Of a stretch of 64,000 nt of DNA, positions 4,929-64,000 are shown in pieces. Where the stretch lies: assembly GCA_965204115.1 (NCBI GenBank), contig OZ241963.1, positions 233,293 through 297,292 of the forward strand, read 5' to 3'. The stretch comes from Minisyncoccota bacterium. Its GTDB lineage: Bacteria > Patescibacteriota > Minisyncoccia > Phycocordibacterales > JABAAK01. The notes below the pieces were generated by a model. It was given only the letters and a program-made list of their open reading frames with translations. It ran no database searches and had not been told where the DNA came from. The number at the start of each line of letters is the position of its first letter. Position 1 is the stretch's first letter. Both the position numbers and the translations under genes were made by a program.

Positions 4929-4929
4929 A

Positions 4930-6772: not shown

Positions 6773-6983
6773 ATGTTCAGTTTAACATAAACCAATTGAT
6801 TATACAAGAATATGTGGACACTGGTGACATGATTGATATGTTGAGTACATGATGCTGGATAACCTATAAATGGCGGGTTAATTAAAGTCTATATTTCTGC
6901 TACCCTGTTGCACGGAGCGGAGCGGAGATGGTGCAGTGTTTGTGTACACAATCGCTGCACTGTTTTGAATGGGCGAGGAGGGT

Positions 6984-7673: not shown

Positions 7674-7837
7674 GTCATTCCTCCGTGTTCACAATGATCA
7701 AGTGTTTTATAGCAAAAACACTCCACACCTCATTTTATCACACAGATAAATCTTTCAGAGAGACGGTTTGTCCAACTTGTTTACCTATTCCCTAAAACAT
7801 AACAAGGGGCAGCCGATGGCTGCCCCCATAAATTTGT

Positions 7838-14240: not shown

Positions 14241-16808
14241 TTATTGAGAGGTTTTACTGAGGTCTCCGATGGCGACCCAGCCCTCTTCGTAGCTTACGGG
14301 TGGTGCCTGTTTTTCTCTCTTTGGTGCGACTTTGAGATCTTTTTGTAGGCCGGTTGATTTTGTTGATTTTACTAAATCACCCAATCCGCCGCTGATGTTT
14401 GGGCGTGGTTGCGGTTGCTGTTTTTTTGGTGCTTCCTGCTGTTTGTTTTCTGTATCCGGCTTTGTGACCGACTGCTCGGTCGGTGGTGGCGCTGCCATAC
14501 TGCGTGCAATGGTTCCGGTGATCACGCCGTTTGGTCGGCGGACGGTGTCGGGTTCCTGCTGCTGCCTTTCCTGCCTTCTTCGCTGAGTCAATCTTTCATT
14601 TTTTGCTAATCTGTTTCTCTCTTGCTTTGTTTGTGCGATTGGCTTGTGCGAAGGTGTCTGCCTTTGTGTGTTCTGCCGGGGGTGTTGTGGCCTTTCCGAC
14701 TGCTGGCGCCTGTCCAGTGCAGGAGTTCTACCTCTCTGCCTTTCAGTGTTTCTGTGCTGCTGCGGTTTGCGTTGCTCGGGTCGCTCAGGTCGCTGTCTAC
14801 TGTTGTTGTGGCGTGTGTCATTTCTTTCTCTTTGGGAGGGGCGCTTGTTTCTTAGTTCGCGCGGCCTTTCAGGAGCGGCATCTCGTGTGCGCTGTGGCGC
14901 AGTGTTTCTTGGTTCACGCTCCTGCCGTCTTTCGTTTCTTTTGCGGTCGGTGCGCTGTGGTTTCTGTATGTCCGCTTTGCGAGTATCTCTTTGTATATTC
15001 ATACCATCGTCTTTCTTTTCGGACACAGCAGGCGTGATGGGGTACTCTTTTTTCTCTTTTGGTTCGTGTGCTGTCTTCTGTGCCGGTGTTGGGGTTGGCG
15101 CTGCTTCAGTACTTTCTGTATCTGACACCGGCTCCGGCTCCGGTTGATTTCGTTTGAAAATTCCTTTGAGTAGCGGCGCGCGCTTTTTTTCAGTGCTTGC
15201 TGCATCTGCTCTCTCATCTCTGCTGTCTGCTTTGCTGTCTGTCTTAACGATAGGGACCGACTTGGCATCTTGTTTTTCTGCCTTGGCTTTGCTGTCGTCT
15301 TGTGCGGTTTGTTTTTTCGGCTTTTCTGTTTTTTGTTTTTCGGTATTCGTCTGTCCGCTGCCGTGTTGCTGTATCTGTTGCACTAATCCTTTCAGCGGGG
15401 TGTGCGTCTCGTTTCCTTTTTGGCCGCCCTGTTTCTTTCTATCAGAGCCCTGCTGTTTGCCGCCTTTCCCTGTTTTTTCTTTTGCCTTTTCATCCTCCGC
15501 CAAGTTATCCGCGACTATTTTTTCTATCACATCCCGGTCAACGCCGTAGGTGTCCATTGTCCGCTGCACCACCTCTTCTTCCATTGAATCTTCAGTCGGC
15601 GGCGGCTCAAAGAAAGTTCGCGCAGAAAACGGCACAGACCCCGCGCCGTCAATGTTCAAGGTGAGGTAGATGTGGTATCGTGGCAGCGCGACTAAGTCCT
15701 CCTCCGCGATGTCCGGCGCGAATTGCTTTGAGATAATTTCCGCGTCAACCGGACCAACCCGAAACGATACAAAGGTGCCGACATTGCCGAACACTGCATC
15801 CCGAATCGCGTCTCCTCCGCCGGTGTCATCGGTATACAGCTGCCCTAAATACTGGTGCGCCATCACCAAATTCAGCTTGTACTTCCGCGCCTCGGATAGG
15901 ATGTCGGAAAAAGAGGAGTTTGCGAATGATTGGAACTCGTCAACGAAAAAGTTGCACGGGTTTGCTGCTTCCAGATGGGCGCGATCCAGATCGCTCCGTG
16001 ATAGTGCGGCGAGGTAGATTTTGGTCGTGAACAACACGCCGAGCATGCGCGCGTTGTTCTCGCCGACCTGCCCTTTTGAAAGGTTTACCAGCAGTATCTT
16101 CCCTTCATCCATAATCTCCCGAAAATTAAACGCTGACTTTTCCTGCCCGATGATGTTTCGCATCAGCGGGTTGGAGGTGAACTGTCCGAGCTTGTTTTGG
16201 ATGGATGGTGTCGCCTCCTGTGCGTACCGCTCGGTATAGTTTGCGTATTCCTCAACCCAGTATTTCCGCACCTGCGGGTCTTTCAGGTTGGCAACCACCT
16301 TTTCACGAAAATCTTTGCTGGAATACATCCGCCCCACATCAAGCAGCGTTGTTCCCGGATACTCAATCAACGCCAACAGTGTGTTCTGTAAAATGTACGC
16401 CATTCGATCCGACCAAGTTCCCGCTCCCCAAATCTTTTCAAATGAGGCCATTAAGCTGCTTACCACCAAATGCCGTTTATCGTATCCGATGTCCTCCATA
16501 ATGTTCAGCCCAATCGGTTTTTCCTGGTAGTGCGGTGCGAAGTAGATGATCTTGTCCAGATGCTCCGGTGTCACATACTTCAGCAGTGCCTCAACGGATT
16601 GACCGTGCGGATCCATAAATATCAGCCCGGTGCCGTTGCGAATGTCCTGCATCGCCAGCATTTCTAACAGCGTTGACTTTCCGGTTCCTGTCTGCCCGAT
16701 GACATAGATATGCCGTGACCGATCCTTTTCCTTAATGCCGAAGCGCACGGTATTCCCCCGCTTTTCTAATTCTCCCACTTGTACTATTCTTTCAGGATCG
16801 TATGCCAT
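14241..16808 (-). CDS. TraD/TraG/VirD4-family type IV coupling-protein-like ATPase (cytoplasmic, no N-terminal TM) with a long charged low-complexity C-terminal tail
   Basis: Walker A YVIGQTGTGKST and Walker B NFFVDEFQSF. The AAA-like fold resembles T4SS DNA-transfer ATPases. Residues ~438-830 are K/E/R/Q/P-rich and disordered. Confidence 0.5.
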   Translation of the reverse strand: MAYDPERIVQVGELEKRGNTVRFGIKEKDRSRHIYVIGQTGTGKSTLLEMLAMQDIRNGTGLIFMDPHGQSVEALLKYVTPEHLDKIIYFAPHYQEKPIGLNIMEDIGYDKRHLVVSSLMASFEKIWGAGTWSDRMAYILQNTLLALIEYPGTTLLDVGRMYSSKDFREKVVANLKDPQVRKYWVEEYANYTERYAQEATPSIQNKLGQFTSNPLMRNIIGQEKSAFNFREIMDEGKILLVNLSKGQVGENNARMLGVLFTTKIYLAALSRSDLDRAHLEAANPCNFFVDEFQSFANSSFSDILSEARKYKLNLVMAHQYLGQLYTDDTGGGDAIRDAVFGNVGTFVSFRVGPVDAEIISKQFAPDIAEEDLVALPRYHIYLTLNIDGAGSVPFSARTFFEPPPTEDSMEEEVVQRTMDTYGVDRDVIEKIVADNLAEDEKAKEKTGKGGKQQGSDRKKQGGQKGNETHTPLKGLVQQIQQHGSGQTNTEKQKTEKPKKQTAQDDSKAKAEKQDAKSVPIVKTDSKADSRDERADAASTEKKRAPLLKGIFKRNQPEPEPVSDTESTEAAPTPTPAQKTAHEPKEKKEYPITPAVSEKKDDGMNIQRDTRKADIQKPQRTDRKRNERRQEREPRNTAPQRTRDAAPERPRELRNKRPSQRERNDTRHNNSRQRPERPEQRKPQQHRNTERQRGRTPALDRRQQSERPQHPRQNTQRQTPSHKPIAQTKQERNRLAKNERLTQRRRQERQQQEPDTVRRPNGVITGTIARSMAAPPPTEQSVTKPDTENKQQEAPKKQQPQPRPNISGGLGDLVKSTKSTGLQKDLKVAPKREKQAPPVSYEEGWVAIGDLSKTSQ

Positions 16809-16813
16809 AGGTA

Positions 16814-17008
16814 TTATTCTTTGGTAGCGTGCTCTGCTTCGTCTTCTTCTCTTTTCTCAGCAATATGCCGTGTGCCGCTGTACACCGAGTAGATAAAGAA
16901 TAAAGCTCCTAATCCAAATGCTACCCATCGCATCCACTCCGACGGCACTCCCACAAACGGAAACGACAGCAGCACAACACTCGCGACAAATATGAGACGG
17001 TATATCAT
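16814..17008 (-). CDS. small two-TM membrane protein (64 aa)
   Basis: Two hydrophobic helices; 6 nt downstream of the ATPase gene. Confidence 0.3.
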   Translation of the reverse strand: MIYRLIFVASVVLLSFPFVGVPSEWMRWVAFGLGALFFIYSVYSGTRHIAEKREEDEAEHATKE

Positions 17009-17033
17009 ATAGTTTTAGTATACAGCACGCATT

Positions 17034-17966
17034 CTATGCCGCTTTTCTTCCGCTAATGTGTGACTCCGGGTCGCAGATGATGAGTGAGGCAATGTCCTCC
17101 TCGAAGTTTGTTGCGTTACTTTCCTCCCTCATCGCCCTCCCTCTTTCATAGAGGTGCAGAGAAATACTCTTTCCGTCTTCGTGTTCGGCAATAAATTTTT
17201 CTGTCGCATCCGGTCCTATGCCGTACTGCTTGACATCCATGATGTACACATCATCTCCCACAATAACCGCCTCTGTGTAGATAGATTTGGTGGTGGTTGC
17301 CGTGTCATGCACACTCCCCCAGTGGGGAATTTCTTCTCCCCACTTGTCTTTATCGCTCTGAATAATGTCTGAGTATTTTCTCGGCGGCTCTTCGGTTATA
17401 TGTATCTCTTTCGGTCGCACATAATATGTTTCTTTTACTCTTTCCAGAATTTTTTGTTTCAGCATCTCTGCTCTTTCTTTTCGCATTTGTTCCTTAATCT
17501 CTTCTCTTTTCAATCTTTCCCTCTCTTTGCGATCAGATTCCACTATCGCTGCAAGCTCCGGGCTAATCAACTCCTCTTTCTGTAATATGAGGAAAAAAAC
17601 ATTGTTGTCAAAATGCTCGCTTTGGATATCGTCATCGTCAAAGTGCTCATTTTGAATGAGGGGTTCCAAAGTGTCAAGAAGGTTCGGGACATTTTTCATC
17701 CATCGGGGAAATTGATTCAGGAGGTCTCTCGCCTCTGCCTTGCTTTCTTTGTATTTTTCACGGGCAGAATACCATCTTCCTTTCACGGTCAGAAAGCCGT
17801 CCAGTGTCAGACGGGCGGCTTTGTCATCATCTTCCAGGAAAAATTTTCCCACCCCTTCCCGGTTTCTGTGCCTAAACTCATTCTTCTTCGGGCTAAACTT
17901 CCGTCTGTGTTCTGCGTTGACTCTTATTCTCTTCATACAGTGATAGTATCGCCTGTGTCCTATCAC
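17034..17966 (-). CDS. hypothetical protein (310 aa), basic N-terminus with an acidic/coiled-coil middle
   Basis: Intact ORF with genome-typical composition; no recognisable motif. The start may be an internal Met. Confidence 0.35.
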   Translation of the reverse strand: MIGHRRYYHCMKRIRVNAEHRRKFSPKKNEFRHRNREGVGKFFLEDDDKAARLTLDGFLTVKGRWYSAREKYKESKAEARDLLNQFPRWMKNVPNLLDTLEPLIQNEHFDDDDIQSEHFDNNVFFLILQKEELISPELAAIVESDRKERERLKREEIKEQMRKERAEMLKQKILERVKETYYVRPKEIHITEEPPRKYSDIIQSDKDKWGEEIPHWGSVHDTATTTKSIYTEAVIVGDDVYIMDVKQYGIGPDATEKFIAEHEDGKSISLHLYERGRAMREESNATNFEEDIASLIICDPESHISGRKAA

Positions 17967-17987
17967 TTATCAAAACTTTTGCACGCC

Positions 17988-18686
17988 TTACTTTTGTTTC
18001 TGCAAACTGGAGATGATAAGTACGATTTCGCCGCGTACTTTGTCCGAGTGTGTCGTGTAGTATGCCAGCACCTCTTCTGCGGTTCCGCTGACGATTTGCT
18101 CGTGCACCTTTGTCATTTCACGGGCAACGATGACTTCTCGCACAGGGTCAAGGTGTTCTCGGAGCGCGCCCAATGTTTTGAGCAGTCGGTGCGGTGCTTC
18201 GTAGCACACGACAGTTCGCTTTTCATCGGCGATTTCCTGAAACAGCGTGTTTCGTCCTTTCTTGCGCGGGAGAAACCCAAGAAACAAAAATGATGAGCTC
18301 GGCGCGCCGGAGGCGGATAGCGCGGCAGTAACTGCGGATGCGCCCGGCACCGTGCGGATGTCCGCCGTCTCCCCTAACTCCTCGCGAACACGCCGGACAA
18401 ACTTCACTCCAGGATCAGAGATGGTCGGCGTGCCGGCATCAGACACCAGCGCGATGGATTTCCCCTTTTGCAAGAGTGTGATCGCCCGCGCGATTTTTCC
18501 GAACCCGCTGTATGAATGGTACGATACGCAGTTTGTGTCAATCGCATAGTGTGCCAGCAATTTTTTTGTCACCCGTGTGTCTTCACAAAATATAGTGTCC
18601 GCTGCCCGTAGAGTTTCAATGGCGCGATATGACATATCGGCAAGATTGCCGATTGGCGTTGCGACGACGAAAAGCGTTCCATACAT
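17988..18686 (-). CDS. rsmI: 16S rRNA (cytidine1402-2'-O)-methyltransferase RsmI
   Basis: LFVVATPIGNLADMSYRAIETLRAADTIFCEDTRVTKKLL plus the tetrapyrrole-methylase-like fold signature. Confidence 0.8.
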   Translation of the reverse strand: MYGTLFVVATPIGNLADMSYRAIETLRAADTIFCEDTRVTKKLLAHYAIDTNCVSYHSYSGFGKIARAITLLQKGKSIALVSDAGTPTISDPGVKFVRRVREELGETADIRTVPGASAVTAALSASGAPSSSFLFLGFLPRKKGRNTLFQEIADEKRTVVCYEAPHRLLKTLGALREHLDPVREVIVAREMTKVHEQIVSGTAEEVLAYYTTHSDKVRGEIVLIISSLQKQK

Positions 18687-18738
18687 TACCTACAGTGTAA
18701 CAACATTCCCCTTTTTGTGCTACACTGCAAAAAAAGAT

Positions 18739-28195: not shown

Positions 28196-28279
28196 GCCGA
28201 GGTGGCGGAATTGGTAGACGCACTGGTCTTAGGAACCAGCGGGGTAAAACCCATGGAGGTTCAAGTCCTCTCCTCGGCA
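28196..28279 (+). tRNA. tRNA-Leu (anticodon TAG), long variable arm
   Basis: Acceptor GCCGAGG/CCTCGGC, anticodon stem CTGGT/ACCAG with loop CTTAGGA, variable arm CGGGGTAAAACCCATGG, T-arm with TTCAAGT loop. Confidence 0.8.
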
Positions 28280-28315
28280 CAAACAATTCCGCCACCTCGG
28301 TGGCGACTAGTTAGT

Positions 28316-28409
28316 CAGCACCAATCGGAGATTGGCGGCACGGGTAGACGCACTGGTCTTAGGAACCAGCGGGGTAAAACCCATGGAGGTTCAAGTCCTC
28401 TCCTCGGCA
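28316..28409 (+). pseudogene. partial duplicate of tRNA-Leu(TAG): 67 nt identical from D-loop to 3' end, with a non-pairing 5' acceptor
   Basis: GGTAGACGCACTGGTCTTAGGAACCAGCGGGGTAAAACCCATGGAGGTTCAAGTCCTCTCCTCGGCA is repeated exactly. The upstream TCGGAGA cannot pair with CCTCGGC (3 mismatches). An inverted copy of the tRNA 5' end (CAATTCCGCCACCTCGG, 28284-28300) lies between the two copies. Confidence 0.45.
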
Positions 28410-28528
28410 CCTTGCGTTTCGCTATGTGTTGTGTTTGATGTCTTGTATTAAAAACAAAATTGGGTTCCGTTTCCTGCTATACCGTATATGGTAAAGAGAA
28501 AACGAAACCCAATTGTAATGATCAAGTG

Positions 28529-29503
28529 CTAGTAGTCGTACTCAACTGATTCCCAGTAGCACTCCTGGGAGCCAACGAAGTGGGAACCGCTACCACCGCC
28601 CCCGCCAAAGTTGTAGTAGTTGTTGTACACAGGGCCTCTATACTGGTCGCCCCCGATGAAGTCGCGACCGACTTCCTCAACTTTGACGCCTGAATTTTTT
28701 GCGATTGCCTCGAGCAATCGCATCTGATTCCCCAGTAGATAGCCTTGGTGGTTCAAGGTGTCTACGAGGGCTATAAGTTGCTCAAACTCCTGGGTACCGT
28801 TCTCCCGTATGGCATCAATCAGCTTATTGGCCATCTCGTTCGCGCTGTTCATAGCGCTTATAAGGGCCGCATTCTTCTGATTGAGTTGGAACTGTAGCCA
28901 GGCTTCCCGCTCCTCCAGATCCTCGAGTCGTTGAGTGGAGGCCGGTCTTAGTAGGGAAAGTAGTTCTTTGTTGTACACTACTGTCCCTCTTTTGTTCAAG
29001 AACTCCCAGATCATTGCCTGATATTCCAGGGTTAGCCGCTTTTCATTTAGCTGTGCCTGAAACTCCGTTTGCTGCGCGGATGGGAGTGTCTGCGCAAACG
29101 GATTGAGGACGCTCTGCGGCGTCTGGGCGTTTCCAGGAGGTGTCGTTGTGGCAGTGCCTCCACCGCCTGTCCACGCTGGGTCTATGCGGCTCAGGCGAAC
29201 GATTGCCTTTTGCCCTTCTTTGATCGCGGGTGTCGGCGTTACTGACGCCGGGTTAACGAGGAACAGTGTGTAGCGTGCGGTGTCGCCGCCGCGTTTCAAT
29301 TCTGCTATCTGGGTGGTAGTCACCCCGCCGTTTGCATCAATGAATATCTGATTCTGCTGCACCCATTGCAGGATCTCTGTGCCTGTTCCTATTTTTCGGC
29401 CTTCGGGACATTGTTCAAGCCCGGTGACCAGGGTTATCTCTGCCGTTGCTGTTGTCGTTGCGAATGTGAAGATTGCTAATATTACTATTGCTGCGAATTT
29501 CAT
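28529..29503 (-). CDS. secreted hypothetical protein (324 aa)
   Basis: N-terminal signal peptide MKFAAIVILAIFTFATTTATA, Thr/Gly-rich linker, Gly-rich C-terminus. Confidence 0.45.
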   Translation of the reverse strand: MKFAAIVILAIFTFATTTATAEITLVTGLEQCPEGRKIGTGTEILQWVQQNQIFIDANGGVTTTQIAELKRGGDTARYTLFLVNPASVTPTPAIKEGQKAIVRLSRIDPAWTGGGGTATTTPPGNAQTPQSVLNPFAQTLPSAQQTEFQAQLNEKRLTLEYQAMIWEFLNKRGTVVYNKELLSLLRPASTQRLEDLEEREAWLQFQLNQKNAALISAMNSANEMANKLIDAIRENGTQEFEQLIALVDTLNHQGYLLGNQMRLLEAIAKNSGVKVEEVGRDFIGGDQYRGPVYNNYYNFGGGGGSGSHFVGSQECYWESVEYDY

Positions 29504-29562
29504 TTTTTCTCCTTTTTACGAGGAGGTGTGCAGCGACGCTGCAACACCTCTCTCTCTGTTAT

Positions 29563-31491
29563 CTATCGGTGCCCTCCCCTCACGAAGCGTCTCTTCTTTT
29601 TGTCGGAGGAGGGTTGTTCGGTTGTGATAAACTCAAAATCAATAGATGTCTCTGTACGACCGGACCGTGGCAGTAGGTATTCGGTGGTTGTTATCACCAC
29701 TTTGTACCCTGTTGCCGTTGGATTGGCCGACAGAAACTCTTGCTGTGCTGCCGCCATCTTCCGCATATGTGGATTGCGGAGGTACTGCTGGTACTCCGCC
29801 TTGCTCAGGAGGTCAGCGGCCGAAACGGTGATTGACGTCGGTTCTCCGATGAGAACCCTTTCTTCAGAAGAAGTTTCGGCGCTGTCATTGGTGTCGGTGT
29901 CCGTTGCTTCGCCACTTGCGTCTGGGGTCTCTGGTTTTGGCTGCCCCAGGAGTGCGAACCGGATCTTCGGCCCCAGTTCAGGGGTCCGGTCAAAAATCAC
30001 CTGAAAAGGTTTCTCTTTGAACGGATAGGCCTTGTGGTCCGTTATCTCGATCTTCATTTCATTTTTTGCCCACCATACAAGGCGGTCAAAGAATTCCTGA
30101 GGATCGAAATGATCCGTTTTGTCGGCAAAGTACACCAACTCGGTGAGTGATGTGATGTTCGCTCTGTCCGCTCCCGGCTCAAATCGCACCTTCTTGCCGG
30201 TCTCCCCTTCCTCTATGAAATAGATGATGGGGAAATCGTTTTCAGTGATTTGTCCTGGGTGTTTCCCTAATCCCTCGCCGATCAGGGTGAATAGCTCTAA
30301 GCTGGTTAGGTCTACGCTGTGCTTCTGTCTGAGCGTGTTCACCCGCAGAGATACGATGTCCTCGTACCTCTGAACGGTGTCACGGACTGCCGTTATGACC
30401 CGTTCGACCTCCATCGCACCTTCCGGGGTCAGGGTGTCGTATCGGATGATAACCGAGCGCTTCCACTTCCCGCCTTTTTCAGGGCGGTGTAGGAGCCCGT
30501 TATTCGAACGGAGGAAGCCGTACACCCTTTCGGGCTCAATACCCCACTCTTCGGCAACCTTAAGTGCCTCAAAGTCGGTATTGATTGGTTTGCTCTCCTT
30601 GTATCGCTTTTTGAACGCAACGGACACTTTTCCTTCTGCGTCTCGCCATTGGTAGACGATAAACTCAGGAAGAGGTTCCTCTGGTGAGACCTCCAATACC
30701 TCGTACAAGTTCTCTAAGCCGGCGGTCCAGTTCTCAACCTTTACGCCGTTTTTACTGAGGTAGGCAAGCGCCTTCTCCGTACTGGTGAACGGTTTCGGCT
30801 TGATTTTGATTTCTTCCGGCGTGGGTGGGGGCGCTGGGGCCTTATACCACTTCGGCGGGAATACATACAACGATGGTTTCCCGTCGGGGCCGAGGAATGG
30901 TCTGCCAGTTGTCGGGTCAAGGTTGACTGCGATTGACATCCGGTAGTCCGTGACTCGTTTCTTGCCAGCAAAGTATTTGCTGGACAAGATTTGTGACATC
31001 ACGAAACTCTGCGGCTCTGATACACTGAGCTCGCTGCCAACCCATTCAACGAATTCGTTGAAATGGGAGCGACTCTTGATCTCATTTGCATGGATCAAGC
31101 TGAATTCGAAGTCAGCAGAGTTCTCATCAATCCTCGATGCCGTTGCGTCTCCCGGAATAGTGACCATTATTTTGACCGCTCCCTCGCCCTGTTCAGGGAC
31201 GGGGACGATTTGGGCCACGACTGGTGGGTACACTCCGTCCTTGAACCGCACTGAGTGTTGTTCCTTTGCGGCAGCTTCAAATGCGGCAGGGTTTACCAAC
31301 ACCGCCTTGAATTTTTCGATCTTCTCCCATGTGTCGAGCGTTTGTGGGAGATCCGGGTTCATTCCCCTTGCTGTTAGTTCAGTCAAGATGGATGAATCTA
31401 ATACGCCGATCCCAATTAACGCGAGACCTGTTACTCCCCCGATTAAGAGGAGTAGCCCTATGACGAACAAGAACTTTTTCATCTTTTGCAC
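29563..31491 (-). CDS. large secreted or membrane-anchored hypothetical protein (642 aa)
   Basis: N-terminal hydrophobic signal/anchor FLFVIGLLLLIGGVTGLALIGIGVL; no enzymatic motif recognised. Preceded by a consensus sigma70-like promoter. Confidence 0.45.
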   Translation of the reverse strand: MQKMKKFLFVIGLLLLIGGVTGLALIGIGVLDSSILTELTARGMNPDLPQTLDTWEKIEKFKAVLVNPAAFEAAAKEQHSVRFKDGVYPPVVAQIVPVPEQGEGAVKIMVTIPGDATASRIDENSADFEFSLIHANEIKSRSHFNEFVEWVGSELSVSEPQSFVMSQILSSKYFAGKKRVTDYRMSIAVNLDPTTGRPFLGPDGKPSLYVFPPKWYKAPAPPPTPEEIKIKPKPFTSTEKALAYLSKNGVKVENWTAGLENLYEVLEVSPEEPLPEFIVYQWRDAEGKVSVAFKKRYKESKPINTDFEALKVAEEWGIEPERVYGFLRSNNGLLHRPEKGGKWKRSVIIRYDTLTPEGAMEVERVITAVRDTVQRYEDIVSLRVNTLRQKHSVDLTSLELFTLIGEGLGKHPGQITENDFPIIYFIEEGETGKKVRFEPGADRANITSLTELVYFADKTDHFDPQEFFDRLVWWAKNEMKIEITDHKAYPFKEKPFQVIFDRTPELGPKIRFALLGQPKPETPDASGEATDTDTNDSAETSSEERVLIGEPTSITVSAADLLSKAEYQQYLRNPHMRKMAAAQQEFLSANPTATGYKVVITTTEYLLPRSGRTETSIDFEFITTEQPSSDKKKRRFVRGGHR

Positions 31492-31571
31492 TCCTTGTAT
31501 TTGCTCCTCCGATGTGTCGAGGGCAAAAAAATTGTTGTTTGGTTGTTATTGGACAGATAAAGTCCATTGCA

Positions 31572-31600
31572 ATTATACCATTTTGCTATTGTTTTGTCAA
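31572..31600 (-). promoter_or_regulatory. sigma70-type promoter for the 642-aa secreted-protein gene (TTGACA-N17-TATAAT with extended TG)
   Basis: On the minus strand this reads TTGACAaaacaatagcaaaaTGgTATAAT, ~75 nt upstream of the ATG at 31491. Confidence 0.5.
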
Positions 31601-31721
31601 GGCACCACAGCGACACCTTTGCTGTCTGTGAGTATAGTAGCATAGGTGCTTTTTTTCCTTTTTTTTACGGGATATTTTGTGTGATTAGTGAGTTCTAAAA
31701 ATAGGTGTATTGGGGGGTTGT

Positions 31722-31756
31722 TTTAAAACAGAAGAAGGGACGGCTGGGCCGTCCCT
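31722..31756 (-). terminator. hairpin terminator downstream of the 31797..32777 gene (possibly bidirectional)
   Basis: GGGACGG-CTGGG-CCGTCCC stem-loop with a U-run on the minus strand (ttcttctgtttt). Confidence 0.4.
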
Positions 31757-31796
31757 TCTAACGAACATTACATTAATACAGTTGAGCGAGCTTGTG

Positions 31797-32777
31797 CTAT
31801 TTCAGTTCAACTTTTCCTTCGCCGCCTTCTTCAGATCCGTTATTCCCTTCCTGAAGCTTGTTCGCCTGCGCAATCGCTTCGGCGAGCTGACTTGTTTTCT
31901 TGTCACGGCGCTTGCCCCAGAAGCCCTTCACGCCATCTTTCGTTTCCGTAAAAATGACTTTATAGGCCTTGAAGCCATAGAATAAGACCAAGGGGAGCAG
32001 GATGATTACCGCACCAATCAGCCACCAGTTTATACCGTTGTCGTCGTGGACGACGGTGGTGGTTGAACCGTGGTTACCGTTGTGGGTTTCATCAGCAGCT
32101 GGAGGAGCCGAGCTGGACGGGCTGTAAGCGGTTGTTGCAACCAGGCCGTCGGCGATGAGCAAAGGCAAAATGTCCTGATTGGCCTTCATACTGCCAACGG
32201 TGTTGGCGGCCAACAGATACATCTCTTGGACATGGTCGCGATAAGCTTTCCACGCTTCCAGATTTGCACCTGCTTCCGGCACTGTAATTTCTTGGGCCAT
32301 ATCGTTTGCCGCAACCATCATGTCGAATGCGAGCTCTCGTTCTGCCTTGGTCGTTGCGCTCCCAGAGCTTGCAACCACCATTGCTGCTTTGATTTTCTCT
32401 TTCGCAGCTTCGGCTTCGCGTTTTGCGACGCGGGCAGCCTGCATGTCCTCGAACTTCTGTTTTGTAATCTTGTACCCGTACTCAGAGTCCGGGACGAAGA
32501 TTGCGTCTTTCTCAATTGTTCCTTGGAAAACAAACGCTTGGTCAATTAACCTACGCGCTGCGTGCGTCCCGCCGCGAATGTTATTCACGCGGGTTTGGGG
32601 AGACGCGTTTTCGTTTGGCTCCGCCGGGTTGTCTAAACTGCGGGGGGCGTCATGGATTGGCGGTACCGTTCCTGCGGTTCCTCCGCCTTCTCCTGGTTGG
32701 CGAAACTGTGCGTCTGCAGCAAACACTGTCATCAAAACTGTCAAAACTGTTAATGTGAAAATTCTAATGCGGGTCAT
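31797..32777 (-). CDS. secreted hypothetical protein with a C-terminal TM anchor (326 aa)
   Basis: Signal peptide MTRIRIFTLTVLTVLMTVFAADA. C-terminal WLIGAVIILLPLVLFYGF helix followed by a charged tail. Confidence 0.45.
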   Translation of the reverse strand: MTRIRIFTLTVLTVLMTVFAADAQFRQPGEGGGTAGTVPPIHDAPRSLDNPAEPNENASPQTRVNNIRGGTHAARRLIDQAFVFQGTIEKDAIFVPDSEYGYKITKQKFEDMQAARVAKREAEAAKEKIKAAMVVASSGSATTKAERELAFDMMVAANDMAQEITVPEAGANLEAWKAYRDHVQEMYLLAANTVGSMKANQDILPLLIADGLVATTAYSPSSSAPPAADETHNGNHGSTTTVVHDDNGINWWLIGAVIILLPLVLFYGFKAYKVIFTETKDGVKGFWGKRRDKKTSQLAEAIAQANKLQEGNNGSEEGGEGKVELK

Positions 32778-32921
32778 TGTGGGTGACTCCTTTTTATAAG
32801 ATATTTGTAGGTTGGGGGCCTACGAAAAATGAAGATTCACCCAATCTGTGTTCCGATTATCATAATAGCGAAAAAAAATAATTTGTCAACCCTTTAGGGT
32901 ATTTTGGCATATCTCTTTTCA

Positions 32922-32980
32922 GTATTAAAAATAAGTCGGGCACCTCTCACTTATCACTACTGTGCTATGTGAGGGTGCCC
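32922..32980 (-). terminator. rho-independent terminator downstream of the lipoprotein gene
   Basis: GGGCACCCTCACATAG...GTGAGAGGTGCCC hairpin with a U-run on the minus strand. Confidence 0.4.
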
Positions 32981-33031
32981 TTCTTTAAGATTGATCATTG
33001 AAAAATTGAATGAGCTAAAAAATTGAAAGAG

Positions 33032-33751
33032 CTACTGGATCGGGACCAGTTTATAGGGGATCGTTGGGAGACCGCCTTCACTGGACGCCGAAGTTGCGGA
33101 TGGGCTCGGGTAGACTACGAGTGCCCCGGACTTGATCCGGGCATCTTCGCCAACACGAACACTGTTTAAGATCATGGAAAACGCTGCCATTTCTGAGGCT
33201 TCTACGCTCCCGTATTCACCAACCGGTAACAAGTTCGTCGGAATTCCAGTGGCATTGAGCTCATTGATGTGCTCGGACGTCAGTCCCTCAGTGGCGACCC
33301 GCTGTGCGGTCTCGCTATCAACGACATTGTACTTGAAGGACGACGGTATGCCGCCTTCAGATGTCGCGGAAGTCGCGGACGGGCTTGGGTATACAACGAG
33401 AGCCCCGGATTCCAGGACAGATTCTTTGCCCAGTGTGGTGCTTGCGAGTACCATTGAAAATGCTGCTTTCCCGCTTGGGTCAGTGACGATCACATTCCCT
33501 GCCTCGATCCCGCCCTGCTTGCCATCCTTCAGGAGTGCTGCAAGCTGGGCGTTTGCGATGCGGGCGTTTAGCTCGGTTTCTGCCGGATCGGCGTCAACAG
33601 TAGTGTTATCGGTTTCGGACGGGGCGACCTCTTGGTGTGCCTGCATTTGGTGCGGCACCGTCGTACTCAGGCATCCGGAAATGGTGCCAATGATGAGCAG
33701 TGCGCACACGACCAATCCGACTCTTTTCGCGTTCAAAATCATCGCTTTCAT
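33032..33751 (-). CDS. lipoprotein with an internal tandem duplication
   Basis: Lipobox LIIGTISGC. The segment SGALVVYPSPSATSA(T/S)SEGG(I/L)P occurs twice, each time preceded by an AAFSM(V/I)L-like segment. Confidence 0.45.
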   Translation of the reverse strand: MKAMILNAKRVGLVVCALLIIGTISGCLSTTVPHQMQAHQEVAPSETDNTTVDADPAETELNARIANAQLAALLKDGKQGGIEAGNVIVTDPSGKAAFSMVLASTTLGKESVLESGALVVYPSPSATSATSEGGIPSSFKYNVVDSETAQRVATEGLTSEHINELNATGIPTNLLPVGEYGSVEASEMAAFSMILNSVRVGEDARIKSGALVVYPSPSATSASSEGGLPTIPYKLVPIQ

Positions 33752-33894
33752 GGAAATATACCTCTCTGGTTAGTCTGGTTAGTTAGTCAAAAAAATAAGA
33801 TGGTTCCTGGTACTGGTATGTGTAATGTTCGTCGTTAGAGAACTAGCCTTACGGCAAGTTTCCAGAGAAAGTGTACCAAAAAAAAGAGGTTGTG

Positions 33895-34194
33895 TCAACT
33901 GTAGATGGTTTCTGCGAGGTGCTGGAGAGAGGTCTGGATATCTCTTTCCGCTAACCTACTGACAAAGGCAATGATAGTCCAGACGGAGGCGATAATGAAG
34001 ATGCCGAAAATACTCCAGCCGAGTTTGGTGAAGAGGTCTTTCCTTTCGGTTGATTCTGCGCCGGCTATGAGCTTGATGGCAATGATGATAAAAAAGAGGA
34101 TGGCGATGAAGAGCATCCCTGCCATTAATGGGTTTACGATATGATCAAACAGGTTGTCGGCGATCTCTTTGGCTGAAAGGGCAAAGGCGAGCAT
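33895..34194 (-). CDS. small two-TM membrane protein, member 1 of a five-paralog family (VirB2/TrbC-pilin-like topology)
   Basis: Shares the core ...(K/R)..(L/M)G(W/Y)S(I/L)(F/I)G(I/L)F(I/V)..SVW.II with ORFs 34216-34611, 34608-35363, 36604-36951 and 36970-37353. Confidence 0.4.
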   Translation of the reverse strand: MLAFALSAKEIADNLFDHIVNPLMAGMLFIAILFFIIIAIKLIAGAESTERKDLFTKLGWSIFGIFIIASVWTIIAFVSRLAERDIQTSLQHLAETIYS

Positions 34195-34215
34195 ATAGGT
34201 TTAGTATACAGGGGT

Positions 34216-34611
34216 TTATTGGGCCGGAGCGATTGATTCCACTTTTCGAAATTCTATATCCGGATTGCCCGGTCCGGCTGTGCCGAGAATGGCAGTTTGA
34301 AGGAGGGATACCAATCCCCAGACGCTGACCAGCACGAAAATGCCGATGATCCCCCATCCCATCCGCTTTTTTGCGTCTGTATTGGCTTCATTCTTACGGA
34401 TATAGTCCACCAAACCCCAGAAAAAAAGGAGGAATGCTATGGTAGCAGCGATGCCGATACATACTGCGATAAGCGGAGGGATATCAGCGACAAGACCTAA
34501 AATCCTATTAATCTCTTGTTCGGCAGGACCCTCTGCAAATGCAATGCCGGCGCCGGAATAAAAAAGTAGTGGGCAATAGGGTGCGTGTTGTGTGAATCTC
34601 TTCATTGTCAA
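34216..34611 (-). CDS. small two-TM membrane protein, paralog 2
   Basis: IAFLLFFWGLVDYIRKNEANTDAKKRMGWGIIGIFVLVSVWGLVSLL: two helices separated by a basic loop. Overlaps the next gene by 4 nt. Confidence 0.4.
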   Translation of the reverse strand: MTMKRFTQHAPYCPLLFYSGAGIAFAEGPAEQEINRILGLVADIPPLIAVCIGIAATIAFLLFFWGLVDYIRKNEANTDAKKRMGWGIIGIFVLVSVWGLVSLLQTAILGTAGPGNPDIEFRKVESIAPAQ

Positions 34612-35363
34612 CTGCAGTCAAAAGTTAGAAGGCGGCTTTTATTTGTATCGGCTGGGCAGTCACCAGAAACAAGGTCACATTTGTCTGTTGAACCCGTAAC
34701 GCCGTCTGCTTTCTTACACTTTGTGTACCCCTTCTTTTCCGTAGTTTGGTTTTTGCAACAAGGGCTTTTTAGATCTGATTCCTTTACACAAGTTGCTGAG
34801 TTTCCATCAGCATTTCTTGCAGGTCTTCCTTCGCTGTTTATATAACGAATACTCACGCTGCCCCCTCCACATCTCTGACTCCCCACTTCCGGCAGTGCAA
34901 TATTGTTGACCTGCTCTTCGCCGACTCCGACCCCAAGCACTCCACGGATAAATCCGATGATGCCCCATAAGGTTACAATCACAAAAATAGCCCCTAAAGA
35001 GTAGCCCATTTTGGTTTTTGCCTCCTCTTTCCCCTCCTCATCTCGGATATACTTGACCAGATTCCAGAAGAAGTAGAAAAAAGCGGCTGTAACCACAATT
35101 CCCACAAGAAGTCTCAACAGACCGGCAAACAAATTGCTCGCATCAAACAGTTGTGCAATCGGGTAAGAAATACTTCCCGGGCACACCTCTTTTGTGCCTC
35201 CGGGTGGTATGATGCATTCTTCGGATCCTTGCGCATCTGCCGGCAGTGAAACGAGGGAGAGGGTTGCGAAACTGAGGAAAAGCGCTGCCCCGATTATTGC
35301 AATATACAGGGTCTTTCGTATAAAAATTTGCTTTGGAGTCATGTGGTTATTATTATATATCAT
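34608..35363 (-). CDS. paralog 3: two-TM core plus a Cys-rich extracellular C-terminal extension
   Basis: FFYFFWNLVKYIRDEEGKEEAKTKMGYSLGAIFVIVTLWGIIGFI core. The C-terminal ~100 aa are Cys/Lys/Gly-rich (CCKNQTTEKKGYTKCKKADG...CDLVSGDC). Confidence 0.4.
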   Translation of the reverse strand: MIYNNNHMTPKQIFIRKTLYIAIIGAALFLSFATLSLVSLPADAQGSEECIIPPGGTKEVCPGSISYPIAQLFDASNLFAGLLRLLVGIVVTAAFFYFFWNLVKYIRDEEGKEEAKTKMGYSLGAIFVIVTLWGIIGFIRGVLGVGVGEEQVNNIALPEVGSQRCGGGSVSIRYINSEGRPARNADGNSATCVKESDLKSPCCKNQTTEKKGYTKCKKADGVTGSTDKCDLVSGDCPADTNKSRLLTFDCS

Positions 35364-35463
35364 TTTCTATGAAAAATCGTGTTGTTTGTGTGGAAAAGAT
35401 TTGGGTAGGAAAAATCCTATATTTTGTGTATTTTACTCCAATTTGTGTAACTACACCAGAGGG

Positions 35464-35493
35464 TTGACAAATACCCAAAATCAATGCTATAGT
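35464..35493 (+). promoter_or_regulatory. sigma70-type promoter (TTGACA-N18-TATAGT), ~500 nt upstream of the amidase gene
   Basis: Read directly: TTGACAaatacccaaaatcaatgcTATAGT. No ORF of 60 aa or more lies between it and the GTG start at 35995. Confidence 0.5.
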
Positions 35494-35994
35494 GTAATCA
35501 GCAGTTAGGGTAAGAGCCCTGGCGGTTCCTTATCTTAAGTAGTTAGAAAACTGTTGAGTGAGAATCTTGGGAGTGACCCTTTTTGGGGATTAAAGAGCCC
35601 GGAAGTAGTCTGAGGTGGTAGCGTCTGGGAAACGTTTACTATTCTTGGGCTGGCCGGTAGGGCATTCTGCTCCTAGACACAGGTTTAGTGCCAGCTGAAC
35701 CGAGTGAAATTTTAATCTTAATAGTTTTTGCCCTAATCTCAGGAGTGTGAGGCTTATCCAGTAACTCTGGATGAGAGAAATCCGAGCACGGATTAGGGAA
35801 GATATCGTCGGCATACCTTGGTTGGTCAGTTTTAACTGCTGTTTCTGCAGTTACCACTTTAGACCTTCCTTCGTACTCAATCTGTTTCCAGGTCTATGAT
35901 GTCTTGTTCTTTCCTGGCTTAAGCGCTCACACTTATCTTCGGATTTGTTTGAGCGCTTATTCTATATGTAACAAGATACTAAAGGAGGATAAAG

Positions 35995-36546
35995 GTGATT
36001 AAAAAAATTATTGCACTCTTGTTTGTCAGCGCATGTATCTCACTGTATGGTTGCGGTGGTGGTGTTCGCGGTTCCGGAGGCGGCTCGTTGCTTGATGGTG
36101 CCGGCAGACCGGTAACGACCGTTGTCGTGCATCATACTGCCGGTATGGCGAGCAACGACATCAAGCAGGTCGTCTCCGGAATCAACCGCCTGCATGCGCG
36201 AAAGTTTCGGAAGATGGGCAAGAGCTTGGGCCTTACCATTGCGTATCATTATTTGATTACACCGGATGGCAAGGTGTGGCGGACGCGGGACTTACAAGAT
36301 GTCGGCTACCACGCCGGTGACTGGGATGTGAACCTTCATTCCATTGGCGTCTGCTTGGTTGGTGATTTTACAAAATATCGTCCGACTAGGCCGCAGGTGC
36401 GGTCACTTGATCGGTTGGTGCGGCGACTGCGGAGTGAGCGGAATATCTCGAAAGTTATTCCTCACTCTTACTGTCGGGCAACGCTCTGTTGCGGAGAGTA
36501 CCTCAAGCGGGAAGTCCGCAAGCTTTCGTGGGGGAAGCACTTTTGA
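35995..36546 (+). CDS. N-acetylmuramoyl-L-alanine amidase (Amidase_2/PGRP domain), lipoprotein
   Basis: VVHHTAG...AYHYLITPDGKVWRTRDLQDVGYHAGDWDVNLHSIGVCLVGDF matches the zinc-amidase_2 signature. Lipobox LLFVSACISLYGC. GTG start preceded by AAGGAGG. Confidence 0.7.
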   Translation: MIKKIIALLFVSACISLYGCGGGVRGSGGGSLLDGAGRPVTTVVVHHTAGMASNDIKQVVSGINRLHARKFRKMGKSLGLTIAYHYLITPDGKVWRTRDLQDVGYHAGDWDVNLHSIGVCLVGDFTKYRPTRPQVRSLDRLVRRLRSERNISKVIPHSYCRATLCCGEYLKREVRKLSWGKHF

Positions 36547-36603
36547 TGAACATTACTTTTACATAAATACCTGACACTGTCGCTGTGTCAGGTATTTTCT
36601 TTT

Positions 36604-36951
36604 TTATCCGGTGAAGAGGTTGCGAAGGAGGTAGACAATGCCCCAGAGGGAGAAGACAGCGAAGAGGATGATGATGCCATAGAGGAGGCGCTTTTTGGCA
36701 AAATCGGCGAGGTTGCCGTCACCTTTGCTGGCGGCGCGCATATAGAGGACAATGCCGTAGATGAATAAGAAGAAGAGGATGATCACGGCGAGCGGGATCA
36801 GAACTCCGCTGAGTGCCTGAATGCCAAGATCAACGACACCTTTGAGGGAGAGTGTCTCCCAGGTCGGCTGGGCGGATGCACTGCCGGCACTGACGGTTGC
36901 GATGAGTAGTGCGGGCAGGAGTATTGTTTTTGCGTGGCGATGTGTTTTCAT
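36604..36951 (-). CDS. small two-TM membrane protein, paralog 4 (with signal peptide)
   Basis: IPLAVIILFFLFIYGIVLYMRAASKGDGNLADFAKKRLLYGIIILFAVFSLWGIVYLL. Confidence 0.4.
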   Translation of the reverse strand: MKTHRHAKTILLPALLIATVSAGSASAQPTWETLSLKGVVDLGIQALSGVLIPLAVIILFFLFIYGIVLYMRAASKGDGNLADFAKKRLLYGIIILFAVFSLWGIVYLLRNLFTG

Positions 36952-36969
36952 ACTGTATTTTAATGCGTG

Positions 36970-37353
36970 TTAGTTTTCGGTAACGGTCTCTACTTGATAG
37001 TCACTCTCCACCAACTCATTGACCGTGTTTTGAATGACAAAGAGAATACCGCGAGTGCCGAGTACGAGAAAGAGTCCGATGAGCGACCAGCCGAATGCGT
37101 TTTTCCATTTTGTGTAGTCGGCGGTTTTCTCTCTGCCGGCGAGCACCATCTGGAAGCCGATATAGGTGATGGAAAGGACGATGATAGGCATCAGGATGAG
37201 GGTAGCGCCATTTGTCACGCCGATGATGAGGTCGCTGACACTGCAGTATTTTATCGGATTGCAGAAGATTGCGTCGGATGGGCACCCGCAATCTGCGTAC
37301 ACAACAGTAGGAGTGAGCGCGGTGAGGAGTGAGAGTATGGCAGCGTACAACAT
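36970..37353 (-). CDS. small two-TM membrane protein, paralog 5 (Cys-containing N-terminal region)
   Basis: LILMPIIVLSITYIGFQMVLAGREKTADYTKWKNAFGWSLIGLFLVLGTRGILFVI. N-terminal CGCPSDAIFCNPIKYC. Confidence 0.4.
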   Translation of the reverse strand: MLYAAILSLLTALTPTVVYADCGCPSDAIFCNPIKYCSVSDLIIGVTNGATLILMPIIVLSITYIGFQMVLAGREKTADYTKWKNAFGWSLIGLFLVLGTRGILFVIQNTVNELVESDYQVETVTEN

Positions 37354-37416: not shown

Positions 37417-38760
37417 CTACTTAAACAAATTTTCTATAACCCTTGTTTCCTGCCTCGTGGTGCGGACTCCGATGATCACATTCTTCAGTGCGGTGAGTAT
37501 GGCTGCTCGTTTCTCCGGCACAAGGGGTATATTCCTGCCGGCAAAGAGGGCGTTAAGGAACACTTCTTCTGTTGCGGTTATGGTGTTGAAGAATGCCTCT
37601 ATGTTCCTGACTTCCCCGTCTGTGTTCGCCAGCGCGGTTCTTGTTTCGCGGTCAAAGCCGTTGATCGGCGGCGGCATGGCGATTGCGTTAAAAATCTCCA
37701 AAGGAAATTGTTGCAGCACCGCTGCCATATCAAACACAACCTGATGTGCCGATGCAGCGCGCGTGCCTTTCCATGGGATGGCAAGGGTGTATATTTTTGT
37801 CGGTACGACTGTCGTGCTGTCGGCGGCGAGCTGCGGTAATGGTGCGGCCTGCATGACAACGTTTGGGTTCGCCCGCTGCAGGTCCCGGTACTCACTGACA
37901 AACCCCGGGTAAAAGAGCAGTTTGTTTCCGATAAACATACTTCGCGCCGGCAATAGGGATTCACTCCATGTCTGCACCGGTGATCGGAGTGAGGCGAAGT
38001 TGGTGTAGAACGAGATGAGGTCTGTCGTCGGTGGTGCCGCGCCGCCGAATTCTCGCGCTTGCAGCATCAGTGCTGCGAACAGATACGGTGCATTGGCATA
38101 ATTACCGTATGCCCCGAACGGGATAATCGCTTTGTCGCTTTCTCGGTATGCCTTTGCGATGTCTTGATACTCTCTTTCAGTGAAATCTTTCCACACCGTC
38201 GGCAGTTGGCGCAGGTCATGCTGCCGGCGCAGACCTTCATTGTAGTAGAGCACTAAACTGTCTGCCAATATCGGCAGTGCGATATACCCGCCCGACCGCA
38301 AAAAGATATCCGCTGTTTGTATAAACATATACTGATAATCTGCGACGGTCGTAACCGGGTAGTGTCCGAACGGAATGATTCTCAGTGCGGCCGCGTTCTC
38401 AAACGCGGGTATTTCAGCTGACTCCAGCAGCAGCAAGTCAGGTACCCGCTCGTCATAGGCAACTGCCCGGGCAAACTCACCTTCTATGGTGTCGGCATTT
38501 TTTTCTTCATAGCGGATGGTATCATACCCTTTGTCCACCCCGCCCCGCAAGTTTCTAAAGATAAGGTTTGCTTTGTCGGCGTCCAGTGTTCCCCACACAA
38601 CTATCTCAATTTTTTCCCGCCCTTGTGACGAACCGGACCCTGTGGATGGTGATTGTTTATTCTTTGCCAGCAAGCCGTACAGCGCTAAGCTGCCGAAACC
38701 GACAAGGATAAGAAAGCCGAATACAGCGTAGATAATAATTTGAAAATTTTGCTTGTTCAT
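37417..38760 (-). CDS. membrane-anchored extracellular solute-binding-protein-like protein
   Basis: N-terminal TM anchor, then IEIVVWGTLDADKANLIF..., typical of family-1 periplasmic solute-binding proteins. Immediately downstream of gyrA. Confidence 0.4.
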   Translation of the reverse strand: MNKQNFQIIIYAVFGFLILVGFGSLALYGLLAKNKQSPSTGSGSSQGREKIEIVVWGTLDADKANLIFRNLRGGVDKGYDTIRYEEKNADTIEGEFARAVAYDERVPDLLLLESAEIPAFENAAALRIIPFGHYPVTTVADYQYMFIQTADIFLRSGGYIALPILADSLVLYYNEGLRRQHDLRQLPTVWKDFTEREYQDIAKAYRESDKAIIPFGAYGNYANAPYLFAALMLQAREFGGAAPPTTDLISFYTNFASLRSPVQTWSESLLPARSMFIGNKLLFYPGFVSEYRDLQRANPNVVMQAAPLPQLAADSTTVVPTKIYTLAIPWKGTRAASAHQVVFDMAAVLQQFPLEIFNAIAMPPPINGFDRETRTALANTDGEVRNIEAFFNTITATEEVFLNALFAGRNIPLVPEKRAAILTALKNVIIGVRTTRQETRVIENLFK

Positions 38761-61095: not shown

Positions 61096-61112
61096 ATACA
61101 TTTACACTGCTT

Positions 61113-63902: not shown

Positions 63903-64000
63903 ATATTCTTTATTATACGCTACCCTTGTTTCACCCAAGCGTCATGCATGCCACTTGTACTACGATGTTCGCAGGAAGGAGTGCTCGGCGATTATGCCGA

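Follow-up and report, generated by a model that had tools for sequence, protein, structure and literature searches.

A 64,000-nucleotide (nt) stretch of the genome of a Minisyncoccota bacterium (contig OZ241963.1, positions 233,293–297,292; the whole of this stretch is called the window below) carries, at 33895–37353, an array of five small genes, p1 to p5, with a gene for an amidase set among them. The window's list of open reading frames (ORFs) confirmed six ORFs at these positions, the five small ones all on the minus strand and the amidase gene on the plus strand (Table 1). A first-pass annotation, made from the sequence alone, had proposed the five small ORFs, and all are present. It had also recorded the amidase; position, lipobox and enzyme type hold, and we add that the gene lies on the opposite strand and is therefore transcribed in the direction opposite to the pilin genes, an orientation absent from that annotation. 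The start of p2 is most likely ATG 34605 rather than TTG 34611, because its closest homologs (P0001–P0003) have 129 aa; an exact-sequence lookup of the version starting at TTG returned zero matches. Judged by its ortholog in L020, p3 may start at 35342. Here, L numbers denote regions around GyrA relatives and pilin homologs, and P numbers denote protein homologs.

Table 1 Features of the pilin-like array and its surroundings (window coordinates; start sites, topology and functional names are predictions).
Feature	Position	Strand	Length	Description
p1	33895–34194	−	99 aa	T4SS_pilin paralog, type E
p2	34216–34605 (listed ORF to 34611, 131 aa)	−	129 aa from ATG	Type D; signal peptide end AFA
p3	34608–35363	−	251 aa; alternative start 35342	Type C; ~105-aa tail, predicted extracellular
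p4	36604–36951	−	115 aa	Type B; signal peptide end ASA; C-terminal tail nearly absent
p5	36970–37353	−	127 aa	Type A; signal peptide end VYA
Amidase	35995–36546	+	183 aa	Lipoprotein, Amidase_2/PGRP (peptidoglycan recognition protein) type; between p4 and p3
h447	37417–38760	−		Membrane-anchored sugar-type solute-binding protein (SBP); directly upstream of array
Near-consensus sigma-70 promoter	35464–35493	+		Faces RNA candidate and amidase, away from p3
Candidate structured RNA	35497–35965	+	~470 nt	Between promoter and amidase
Intrinsic terminator of amidase gene	36565–36597	+		13-bp stem-loop then T-run; between convergent amidase and p4
Surface-protein island (putative)	28529–33751	−		Four genes, downstream of array
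Island: lipoprotein	33032–33751	−		Sub-threshold Hexapep match
Island: signal peptide and C-terminal transmembrane protein	31797–32777	−		Topology prediction
Island: protein with N-terminal transmembrane segment	29563–31491	−	642 aa	Topology prediction
Island: signal-peptide protein	28529–29503	−		Topology prediction

The best Pfam match of all five small proteins was the same curated family, PF18895 (T4SS_pilin, 'Type IV secretion system pilin'). Scores lay above the gathering score of 26.6 bits for p1 (28.9), p2 (34.0) and p5 (33.5) and below it for p3 (25.0) and p4 (17.7); despite these sub-gathering scores, p3 and p4 are tied to p2 by pairwise BLASTP (E 6e-17, at 42% identity, and 1e-12, respectively, all E-values here being computed against a tiny database). 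Further links joined p1 to p3 (E 4e-9), p1 to p2 (E 5e-7) and p5 to p2 (E 1e-4). BLASTP identities were 29–42% over the hairpin region, and pairwise identity across the five-copy array was 17–42%. When the window's 500 ORFs of 40 aa or more were searched with a hidden Markov model built from the five, no sixth copy appeared. Beyond the window, a profile that combined the paralogs with their first homologs matched 23,794 representative clusters (E ≤ 1e-3) in 1.84 billion proteins, and a word-indexed search returned 1,155 proteins; among the matches listed, all carry PF18895, and those with a name appear as 'pilin' (Paceibacterota; the NCBI name) or 'hypothetical' (Nomurabacteria). Neither a holin family (Pfam and PHROGs) nor a transporter family (Pfam) competed with PF18895 for any of the five. 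On these profile and pairwise matches, we regard membership of the five proteins in PF18895 as solid. The paralogy proposed in the first-pass annotation is thus borne out by the BLASTP links and the common best family, and its guess at a VirB2/TrbC-like pilin, drawn from topology, lands on a curated pilin family.

Hydropathy indicated a shared core in all five proteins, consisting of a hydrophobic helix, a loop rich in lysine and arginine and a second hydrophobic helix. In p2 to p5 this core follows a signal-like N-terminus, which ends in ADA in p3 and as listed in Table 1 in the others. In p1, just eight residues precede the conserved segment, and the protein is therefore predicted to have no signal peptide; this leaderless type-E N-terminus is conserved in orthologs. 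Of the topology described earlier for the whole set, the two helices and the basic loop therefore stand throughout, and the signal segment stands for p2 to p5 but not for p1. One paralog had been credited with a Cys-rich tail; this is p3, with eight cysteines in the tail (residues 165–250) and two more ahead of the first helix. Four cysteines also lie in the segment before helix 1 of p5. An AlphaFold2 model of p2 gave a helical hairpin (residues 44–72 and 78–109), with a confidence score (pLDDT) of 70–83 in the helices and a mean of 63.

We then compared the family with classical VirB2/TrbC pilins (PF04956), represented by the Agrobacterium T-pilus, whose VirB2 sequence was checked against PDB entries 8CUE and 8EXH before use. 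Proteins of both groups are small, carry a cleaved leader and have a short basic loop connecting two hydrophobic helices. The literature describes VirB2-type pilins with both ends outside the membrane, and the topology predicted here agrees. At the sequence level, the similarity is weak. A search of the family profile against PDB sequences gave no significant match, only noise (a claudin and designed helical proteins). Comparison with solved VirB2 gave no significant match in sequence or in fold, and hhalign of the family against the single Agrobacterium VirB2 sequence gave nothing. Against an alignment of 120 VirB2 sequences, hhalign aligned 86 collinear columns (P 0.0027, probability 11%), spanning the signal-peptide cleavage region through both helices to the C-terminus; the reversed-sequence control gave 7 columns (P 0.62). 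In the window, PF04956 matched p1 alone (17.0 bits, E 0.007), under its gathering score of 27.9, and weak cross-matches to it occur in orthologs from L015 and L018. Homology of the family to classical VirB2 is plausible, and the link that these alignments suggest is weak. The arrangement also departs from VirB2/TrbC systems, which have one major pilin plus VirB5: five types are co-encoded here, in a monoderm host, some with long variable C-terminal tails, and virB3–virB4 is not adjacent.

A second point of comparison is the Mbov_0395 family of pilin-like proteins from integrative and conjugative elements (ICEs) of Mycoplasma (NF045849, cut-off 40 bits), a short hairpin from a type IV secretion system (T4SS) of wall-less or monoderm bacteria. 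Four of the five paralogs, p1 to p4, matched nearly the whole 80-position model below threshold at 18–26 bits (p1, E 3.8e-6; p4, 25.8 bits), and p1 is the closest of the five both to TrbC and to this model. Unlike the array, which lies in a chromosomal housekeeping context, the Mbov_0395 proteins come from another phylum and from mobile elements, and the bit scores stay below the cut-off.

The closest counterparts are arrays already reported from Patescibacteria. A search of 3,035 Patescibacteria genomes with PF04956 and PF18895 found VirB2-like pilins together with VirB4 in 1,948 assemblies, with the pilin genes near virB4 in 1,135 of these, and 441 arrays of 2–11 VirB2-like genes in 383 assemblies, with a mean identity of 25% (Quinonero-Coronel et al. 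2025; PMC12102498). These arrays are tandem or split by a non-pilin gene and are most abundant in Microgenomatia and Saccharimonadia (PMC12102498). Southlakia epibionticum cannot grow epibiotically without the series of predicted pilins encoded in its T4SS cluster (Wang et al. 2023; PMC10633639), and a 2025 review describes these T4SSs as unique among monoderms in their potential for conjugative pili (PMC12857230). The array in the window resembles those of S. epibionticum ML1 (SEML1_0006–0019), of Nanosynbacter lyticus TM7x ('Sec-secreted array') and of the survey in family, phylum, the divergence of its paralogs, its tandem or split order and the combination of a signal peptide with a hairpin. 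Because such arrays have been published, it is an instance of a phenomenon already described, and the 'unusual kind' of appendage suggested by the first-pass annotation has known precedents (PMC12102498; PMC10633639; PMC12857230). It differs from them in lying not next to virB4 but behind gyrA and an SBP gene, in having one leaderless member (p1), and in comprising five distinct types, mostly with one-to-one orthologs, which does not look like free amplification. Tandem divergent VirB2 copies also occur in the T4SSs of Bartonella and Anaplasma, where they presumably vary the surface that is exposed (work cited in PMC12102498). Those duplicates, from diderm animal pathogens, are recent and similar, in contrast to the five anciently differentiated types here, among which variation lies between strain haplotypes. 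To the published picture, the present analysis adds a virB4-unlinked gyrA–SBP–five-pilin block conserved in Paceibacterota, a division into conserved and hypervariable members, and the insertion of an amidase gene and an RNA candidate.

The block is found in the window and in 9/9 related genomes (L001, L002/L017, L003, L005, L013/L014, L015/L016, L018, L019 and L020), whose GyrA is 99% down to 53% identical to that of the window. Absence of the paralogs outside this genome had been named in advance as a result that would speak against a pilin module; the five-gene set is present in all nine. Among these relatives are Candidatus Paceibacterota and Kaiserbacteria metagenome-assembled genomes (GyrA 91% and 90% identical) and two further complete Paceibacterota chromosomes of 640–725 kb (79–81%). 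By its GyrA relatives, the source organism is a Patescibacterium of the Paceibacterota/Kaiserbacteria type. The order is ribosomal protein S1, a metallo-beta-lactamase (MBL)-fold protein, gyrA, sometimes a methyltransferase, a protein of ~430–450 aa and five PF18895-type genes, with initiation factor IF-2 and ClpB further on. For types A, B and E (p5, p4 and p1), orthology is one-to-one as far as 79% GyrA identity, as seen in L003 and L005; orthologs of p5 were assigned in L001, L002, L003, L005, L014 and L020. The p3/p2-like pair is resolved one-to-one in the closest relatives only and not in L003 or L005, and best-hit analysis left the type assignments in L015 ambiguous. The gene at position 3 is expandable: its versions in the window, L001 and L020 encode a Cys-rich tail, and those in L018 (10001–10756, 251 aa) and L019 (10001–11023, 340 aa) two or three fused hairpin domains. 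The p2-like genes of L003 and L005 encode long tails, with Pro/Gly-rich repeats in L003. In L003, four type IV pilin genes (N-methyl, 'GFTLIELL') and a 278-aa unknown ORF also lie inside the array (16486–18710), between its third and fourth T4SS-pilin genes.

The ~430–450-aa protein of the block is h447 in the window. Alone it has no Pfam match. A profile of seven orthologs matched the sugar-binding protein SmoF in PDB (E 5.7e-14, residues 88–420), and the orthologs carry SBP_bac_8 in four of seven and SBP_bac_1 in two of seven cases; one transmembrane (TM) segment is predicted at residues 8–26. By these profile matches, h447 is a divergent, membrane-anchored solute-binding protein of the family-1/8 sugar type. 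In 9/9 related genomes its gene comes directly before that of the first pilin, both lying on one strand with a gap of 0–63 nt, and it is probably co-transcribed with p5–p4. This constant adjacency, which reaches down to 53% GyrA identity, could mean that the SBP and the ten TM helices of the five small subunits form a membrane complex for uptake or host contact, independent of a T4SS and without a filament. Neither ABC permease or ATPase genes nor a VirB4 gene were found nearby, and no ABC permease gene lies next to h447; the ratio of nonsynonymous to synonymous substitution rates (dN/dS) of the SBP is 0.15, like that of the pilins; and the fusions of two to eight domains known in the family suit a polytopic membrane protein better than a pilus subunit. 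However, the entire neighbourhood is syntenic (S1, MBL, gyrA ... IF-2, ClpB), so that the adjacency of SBP and pilin genes may reflect general synteny rather than function. The family evidence also favours TrbC/VirB2-like and ICE pilin-like models over transporters, and virB4 clusters include genes of the family in other classes of Patescibacteria (1,135 of 1,948 assemblies; PMC12102498). We therefore consider such a complex improbable. We know of no transporter built in this way.

Comparison with the closest relatives indicated where the array varies. Between the window and L013/L014, the housekeeping proteins are nearly identical (GyrA 99%, S1 97% and IF-2 97%), and p5 (95%), p1 (93%), the amidase (87%), p4 (86%) and the SBP (84%) are well above p2 (64%) and p3 (49%). 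The nucleotide alignment of the two breaks at 28411–33867, 34435–34931 and 35109–36042. The best-conserved member is p1, at 86–93% identity in L001, L002 and L014; p2 is 89–93% identical to its homologs P0001–P0003. Within p3, the hairpin core is 83–86% identical to L001, L002 and L014, the exposed N-terminal segment 27% and the tail 10–23%. In both p3 and p5, the hairpin core is conserved and the segments predicted to face outward, the N-terminal stretch and the C-terminal tail, are highly variable.

The first alignment break covers the four genes downstream of the array (Table 1), whose products have no Pfam family, the sub-threshold Hexapep match of the lipoprotein being the sole match. No homologs of the four were detectable in L013/L014, although the flanking IF-2 is 97% identical, and they have no similarity to the downstream surface proteins of L001; partial homologs were found only in L020 and L022. 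The region is a replaceable, hypervariable island of predicted surface proteins and may be functionally separate from the array. L020, from the same study as L013, shares the window versions of p3 (8/8 tail cysteines), p2, the lipoprotein and the next protein. Because L020 shares these versions while L013 differs, at least two surface-region haplotypes exist among genomes whose GyrA is 99% identical; two samples of that study yielded one each.

Between the window and L020, dN/dS was 0.015 for gyrA, 0.05 for S1, 0.07 for p1, 0.15 for the SBP, 0.17 for p4, 0.19 for p5 and 0.20 for both p2 and p3 (0.28 in the p3 tail). No sign of gene-wide positive selection was seen in this comparison, and the values of 0.07–0.20 in the pilins therefore indicate purifying selection within a haplotype. 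We do not claim diversifying selection, since gene-wide dN/dS gave no positive signal; what is seen is deep divergence between haplotypes. A more far-reaching proposal would join these patterns to the operon: the SBP and the five pilin-like proteins would form a class-wide, virB4-unlinked operon for a heteromeric appendage with three structural and two hypervariable, host-determining subunits (p3 and p2), and the island would belong to the same host-range cassette. We regard this as a doubtful, though not far-fetched, extension. If true, it would mean that a monoderm T4SS-type pilus divides labour between major and minor pilins.

The amidase interrupts this array. Its product matched PF01510 (Amidase_2) with 83.1 bits (cut-off 26), and PGRP and T7-lysozyme entries in PDB; it has a lipobox (LYGC, residues 17–20), and its HHTAG motif, H157 and C165 align to the zinc-site residues of PGRP (alignment to PGRP3). 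Only the window, L001, L002/L017, L013/L014 and L020 (GyrA ~90% identical or more) have the gene in this place, between p4 and p3; it is missing from the orthologous arrays of L003, L005, L015, L018 and L019. In L005, p4 is followed by the next pilin gene after ~125 nt, and in L015, L018 and L019 the five pilin genes are consecutive. Where present in the window, the amidase gene lies ~500 nt downstream of a near-consensus promoter and has its own strong terminator (36565–36597). Judged from this distribution, the amidase and the RNA candidate are a later, clade-specific insertion that split an ancestral run of five genes, rather than a core component. The recent, lineage-specific adjacency argues against a core role; a recruited role would still be compatible with it.

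Such a recruited role could be that of the appendage's wall-opening enzyme, an analog of VirB1/PrgK that cuts peptidoglycan locally for passage of the pilus. The amidase is found inside the array in these five related genomes, the window's included, and carries the Amidase_2 catalytic motifs; as a predicted lipoprotein, it would act at the outer face of the membrane, and other hydrolases may replace VirB1 in this phylum according to the literature. Against this, it sits on the opposite strand with a conserved promoter ~500 nt upstream (and a second, closer one in L001, L002 and L013) and its own terminator, it is missing from five orthologous arrays, and Amidase_2 differs from the VirB1 family (lytic transglycosylase/CHAP). 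In addition, VirB1 is missing from most genomes that have VirB2 homologs (PMC12102498), so that this, too, is an unlikely account. The functional companionship of amidase and pilins implied by the first-pass annotation is therefore not supported: the gene is confined to a shallow clade and is independently transcribed by prediction.

Holins are small proteins with two or three TM segments, and a gene for an amidase amid two-TM proteins could also be read as a phage-type lysis cassette or prophage remnant, with the pilin-like proteins as holins and the amidase as endolysin. The amidase does match phage amidase/endolysin PHROGs (phrog_822, E 7e-20). However, 0/5 of the small proteins match a holin family in PHROGs or Pfam, no phage genes surround the locus, whose neighbours are housekeeping genes, the array is chromosomal with class-wide synteny and under purifying selection, the amidase has a lipoprotein signal, and most arrays are without an amidase. 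For lack of any holin match, we reject this idea as effectively refuted.

The 630-nt spacer between p3 and the amidase gene contains no plus-strand ORF of at least 50 aa and had no Rfam match (E ≤ 1 in the window; E ≤ 10 across three genomes). It contains a promoter (TTGACA-18-TATAGT with TG) that is invariant in all six amidase-carrying genomes from the loci named above. In L001, L002 and L013, the transcript would stop at two intrinsic terminators ~400–440 nt downstream, followed by a second promoter serving the amidase. The minimum free energy of the region had a z-score versus shuffles of −4.1 (window) and −3.1 (L001). Compared with L020, the window's version is 91% identical and changes more slowly than the synonymous rate of the flanking genes; RNAalifold on the two sequences gave 144 pairs, none broken, with nine double compensatory changes. 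For the structure predicted from the window only, 28 of the 41 changed pairs stay paired and 13 break, compared with 22 ± 3 broken under the null (P 0.003). The versions in L001, L002 and L013 could not be aligned with that of the window beyond the promoter, the first bases and an 11-nt motif, and a metagenome scan for the conserved promoter block found one locus, a duplicate of L002. The region is a candidate structured RNA outside the known Rfam families, or else the amidase gene may have a long leader that is structured.

Next, we considered whether the locus belongs to a T4SS. The array is embedded in housekeeping genes (IleRS, ClpB, IF-2, tRNAs, GyrA, S1, Pth, LepB, FtsA and FtsZ). The first-pass annotation had joined it to a VirD4-like ATPase and a type IV pilin as one appendage or secretion module. 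The ATPase (14241–16808, minus strand, 855 aa) is a P-loop protein resembling type IV coupling proteins (T4CPs), with DUF87 and TrwB_AAD_bind matches and a match to the CD1115 VirD4-like model over residues 27–349. It has no TM segment and lies ~17 kb from the array. The type IV pilin (63075–63938) has an N-methylation motif, belongs to a different system and lies ~26 kb away. Housekeeping genes fill both intervals, and T4CP homologs are abundant in Patescibacteria but rarely near virB4 or other T4SS genes (PMC12102498), so the proposed module finds no support here. Two observations on the ATPase itself are a C-terminal extension of ~500 aa and a 64-aa hydrophobic mini-protein (16814–17008, minus strand), which ends 5 nt upstream of its gene and may be its split-off membrane anchor.

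We infer that the best-supported reading of the locus is a VirB2-like pilin set (PF18895) of a Paceibacterota/Kaiserbacteria-type Patescibacterium, contributing conserved and variable subunits to a T4SS-dependent pilus, and we put its probability at about 0.6. Several points weigh against it. The search for VirB4 and VirB6 suggested by the first-pass annotation, extended to VirB3, found none of the three in the 64-kb window, and no VirB4-type Pfam family lies within ~10 kb of the array in the Pfam-annotated related loci. VirB2/TrbC proteins typically have a long signal peptide, which the leaderless p1 lacks. Many PF18895 proteins consist of two to eight hairpin domains fused in tandem in one polypeptide (among P0019–P0166, for example, three domains in ~335 aa and eight in 820 aa), which is unusual for the subunit of a helical filament. 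Last, the literature reports no pilus made of PF18895 proteins in any organism, and the family's pilin name is inferential (PMC12102498; PMC10633639; PMC12857230).

If the locus does encode such a pilus, Sec would export p2 to p5, signal peptidase I would cleave them behind the AxA-type sites, and the leaderless p1 would insert directly. In the membrane, each protein would adopt a hairpin whose basic loop faces the cytoplasm and whose two ends lie outside. By analogy with conjugation, a VirB4-type T4SS with its genes elsewhere in the genome would pull the pilins out of the membrane and polymerise them into a short pilus or stalk reaching through the wall to a host cell. The conserved types p1, p4 and p5 would be structural, and the variable types, p2 and p3 (the latter with a tail rich in disulfides), would determine surface or host specificity.

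Other parts of the window contain further features of note. An IleRS-like protein (isoleucyl-tRNA synthetase; 10646–14167, minus strand, 1173 aa) carries a histidine-phosphatase domain (His_Phos_1, residues 510–691, E 5e-31) between its class I catalytic segments. Positions 1–8000 have a low GC content of 35–39%, compared with ~50% elsewhere, and hold an EcoRI-type adenine methylase (4930–5979), a GmrSD_N+HNH protein (3837–4928) and unknown ORFs; this stretch was probably acquired as a restriction/defence island. Two RNase J paralogs (593 and 643 aa) lie side by side at 59314–63044 (plus strand), the first matching only the beta-CASP and C-terminal domains, with no match to a metallo-beta-lactamase domain. 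At 28196–28408 (plus strand), ARAGORN predicted two tandem tRNA-Leu(tag) genes 45 nt apart, of which only the first scored above the Rfam gathering score.

Patescibacteria account for a large part of bacterial diversity, and those in culture live attached to host cells. Of the machinery for attaching to these hosts and exploiting them, only a T4SS with its pilin array has been shown to be essential, in one cultured Saccharibacterium, and the locus described here leaves that picture unchanged. For the less-studied Paceibacterota, it offers handles: a fixed, recognisable block of gyrA, a binding protein and five pilin types; a split into conserved and hypervariable members; and co-occurring haplotypes that differ mainly in the exposed parts of the pilins and in neighbouring surface proteins. 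The block, the split and the haplotypes are features expected of host-range determinants and can be tracked in metagenomes.

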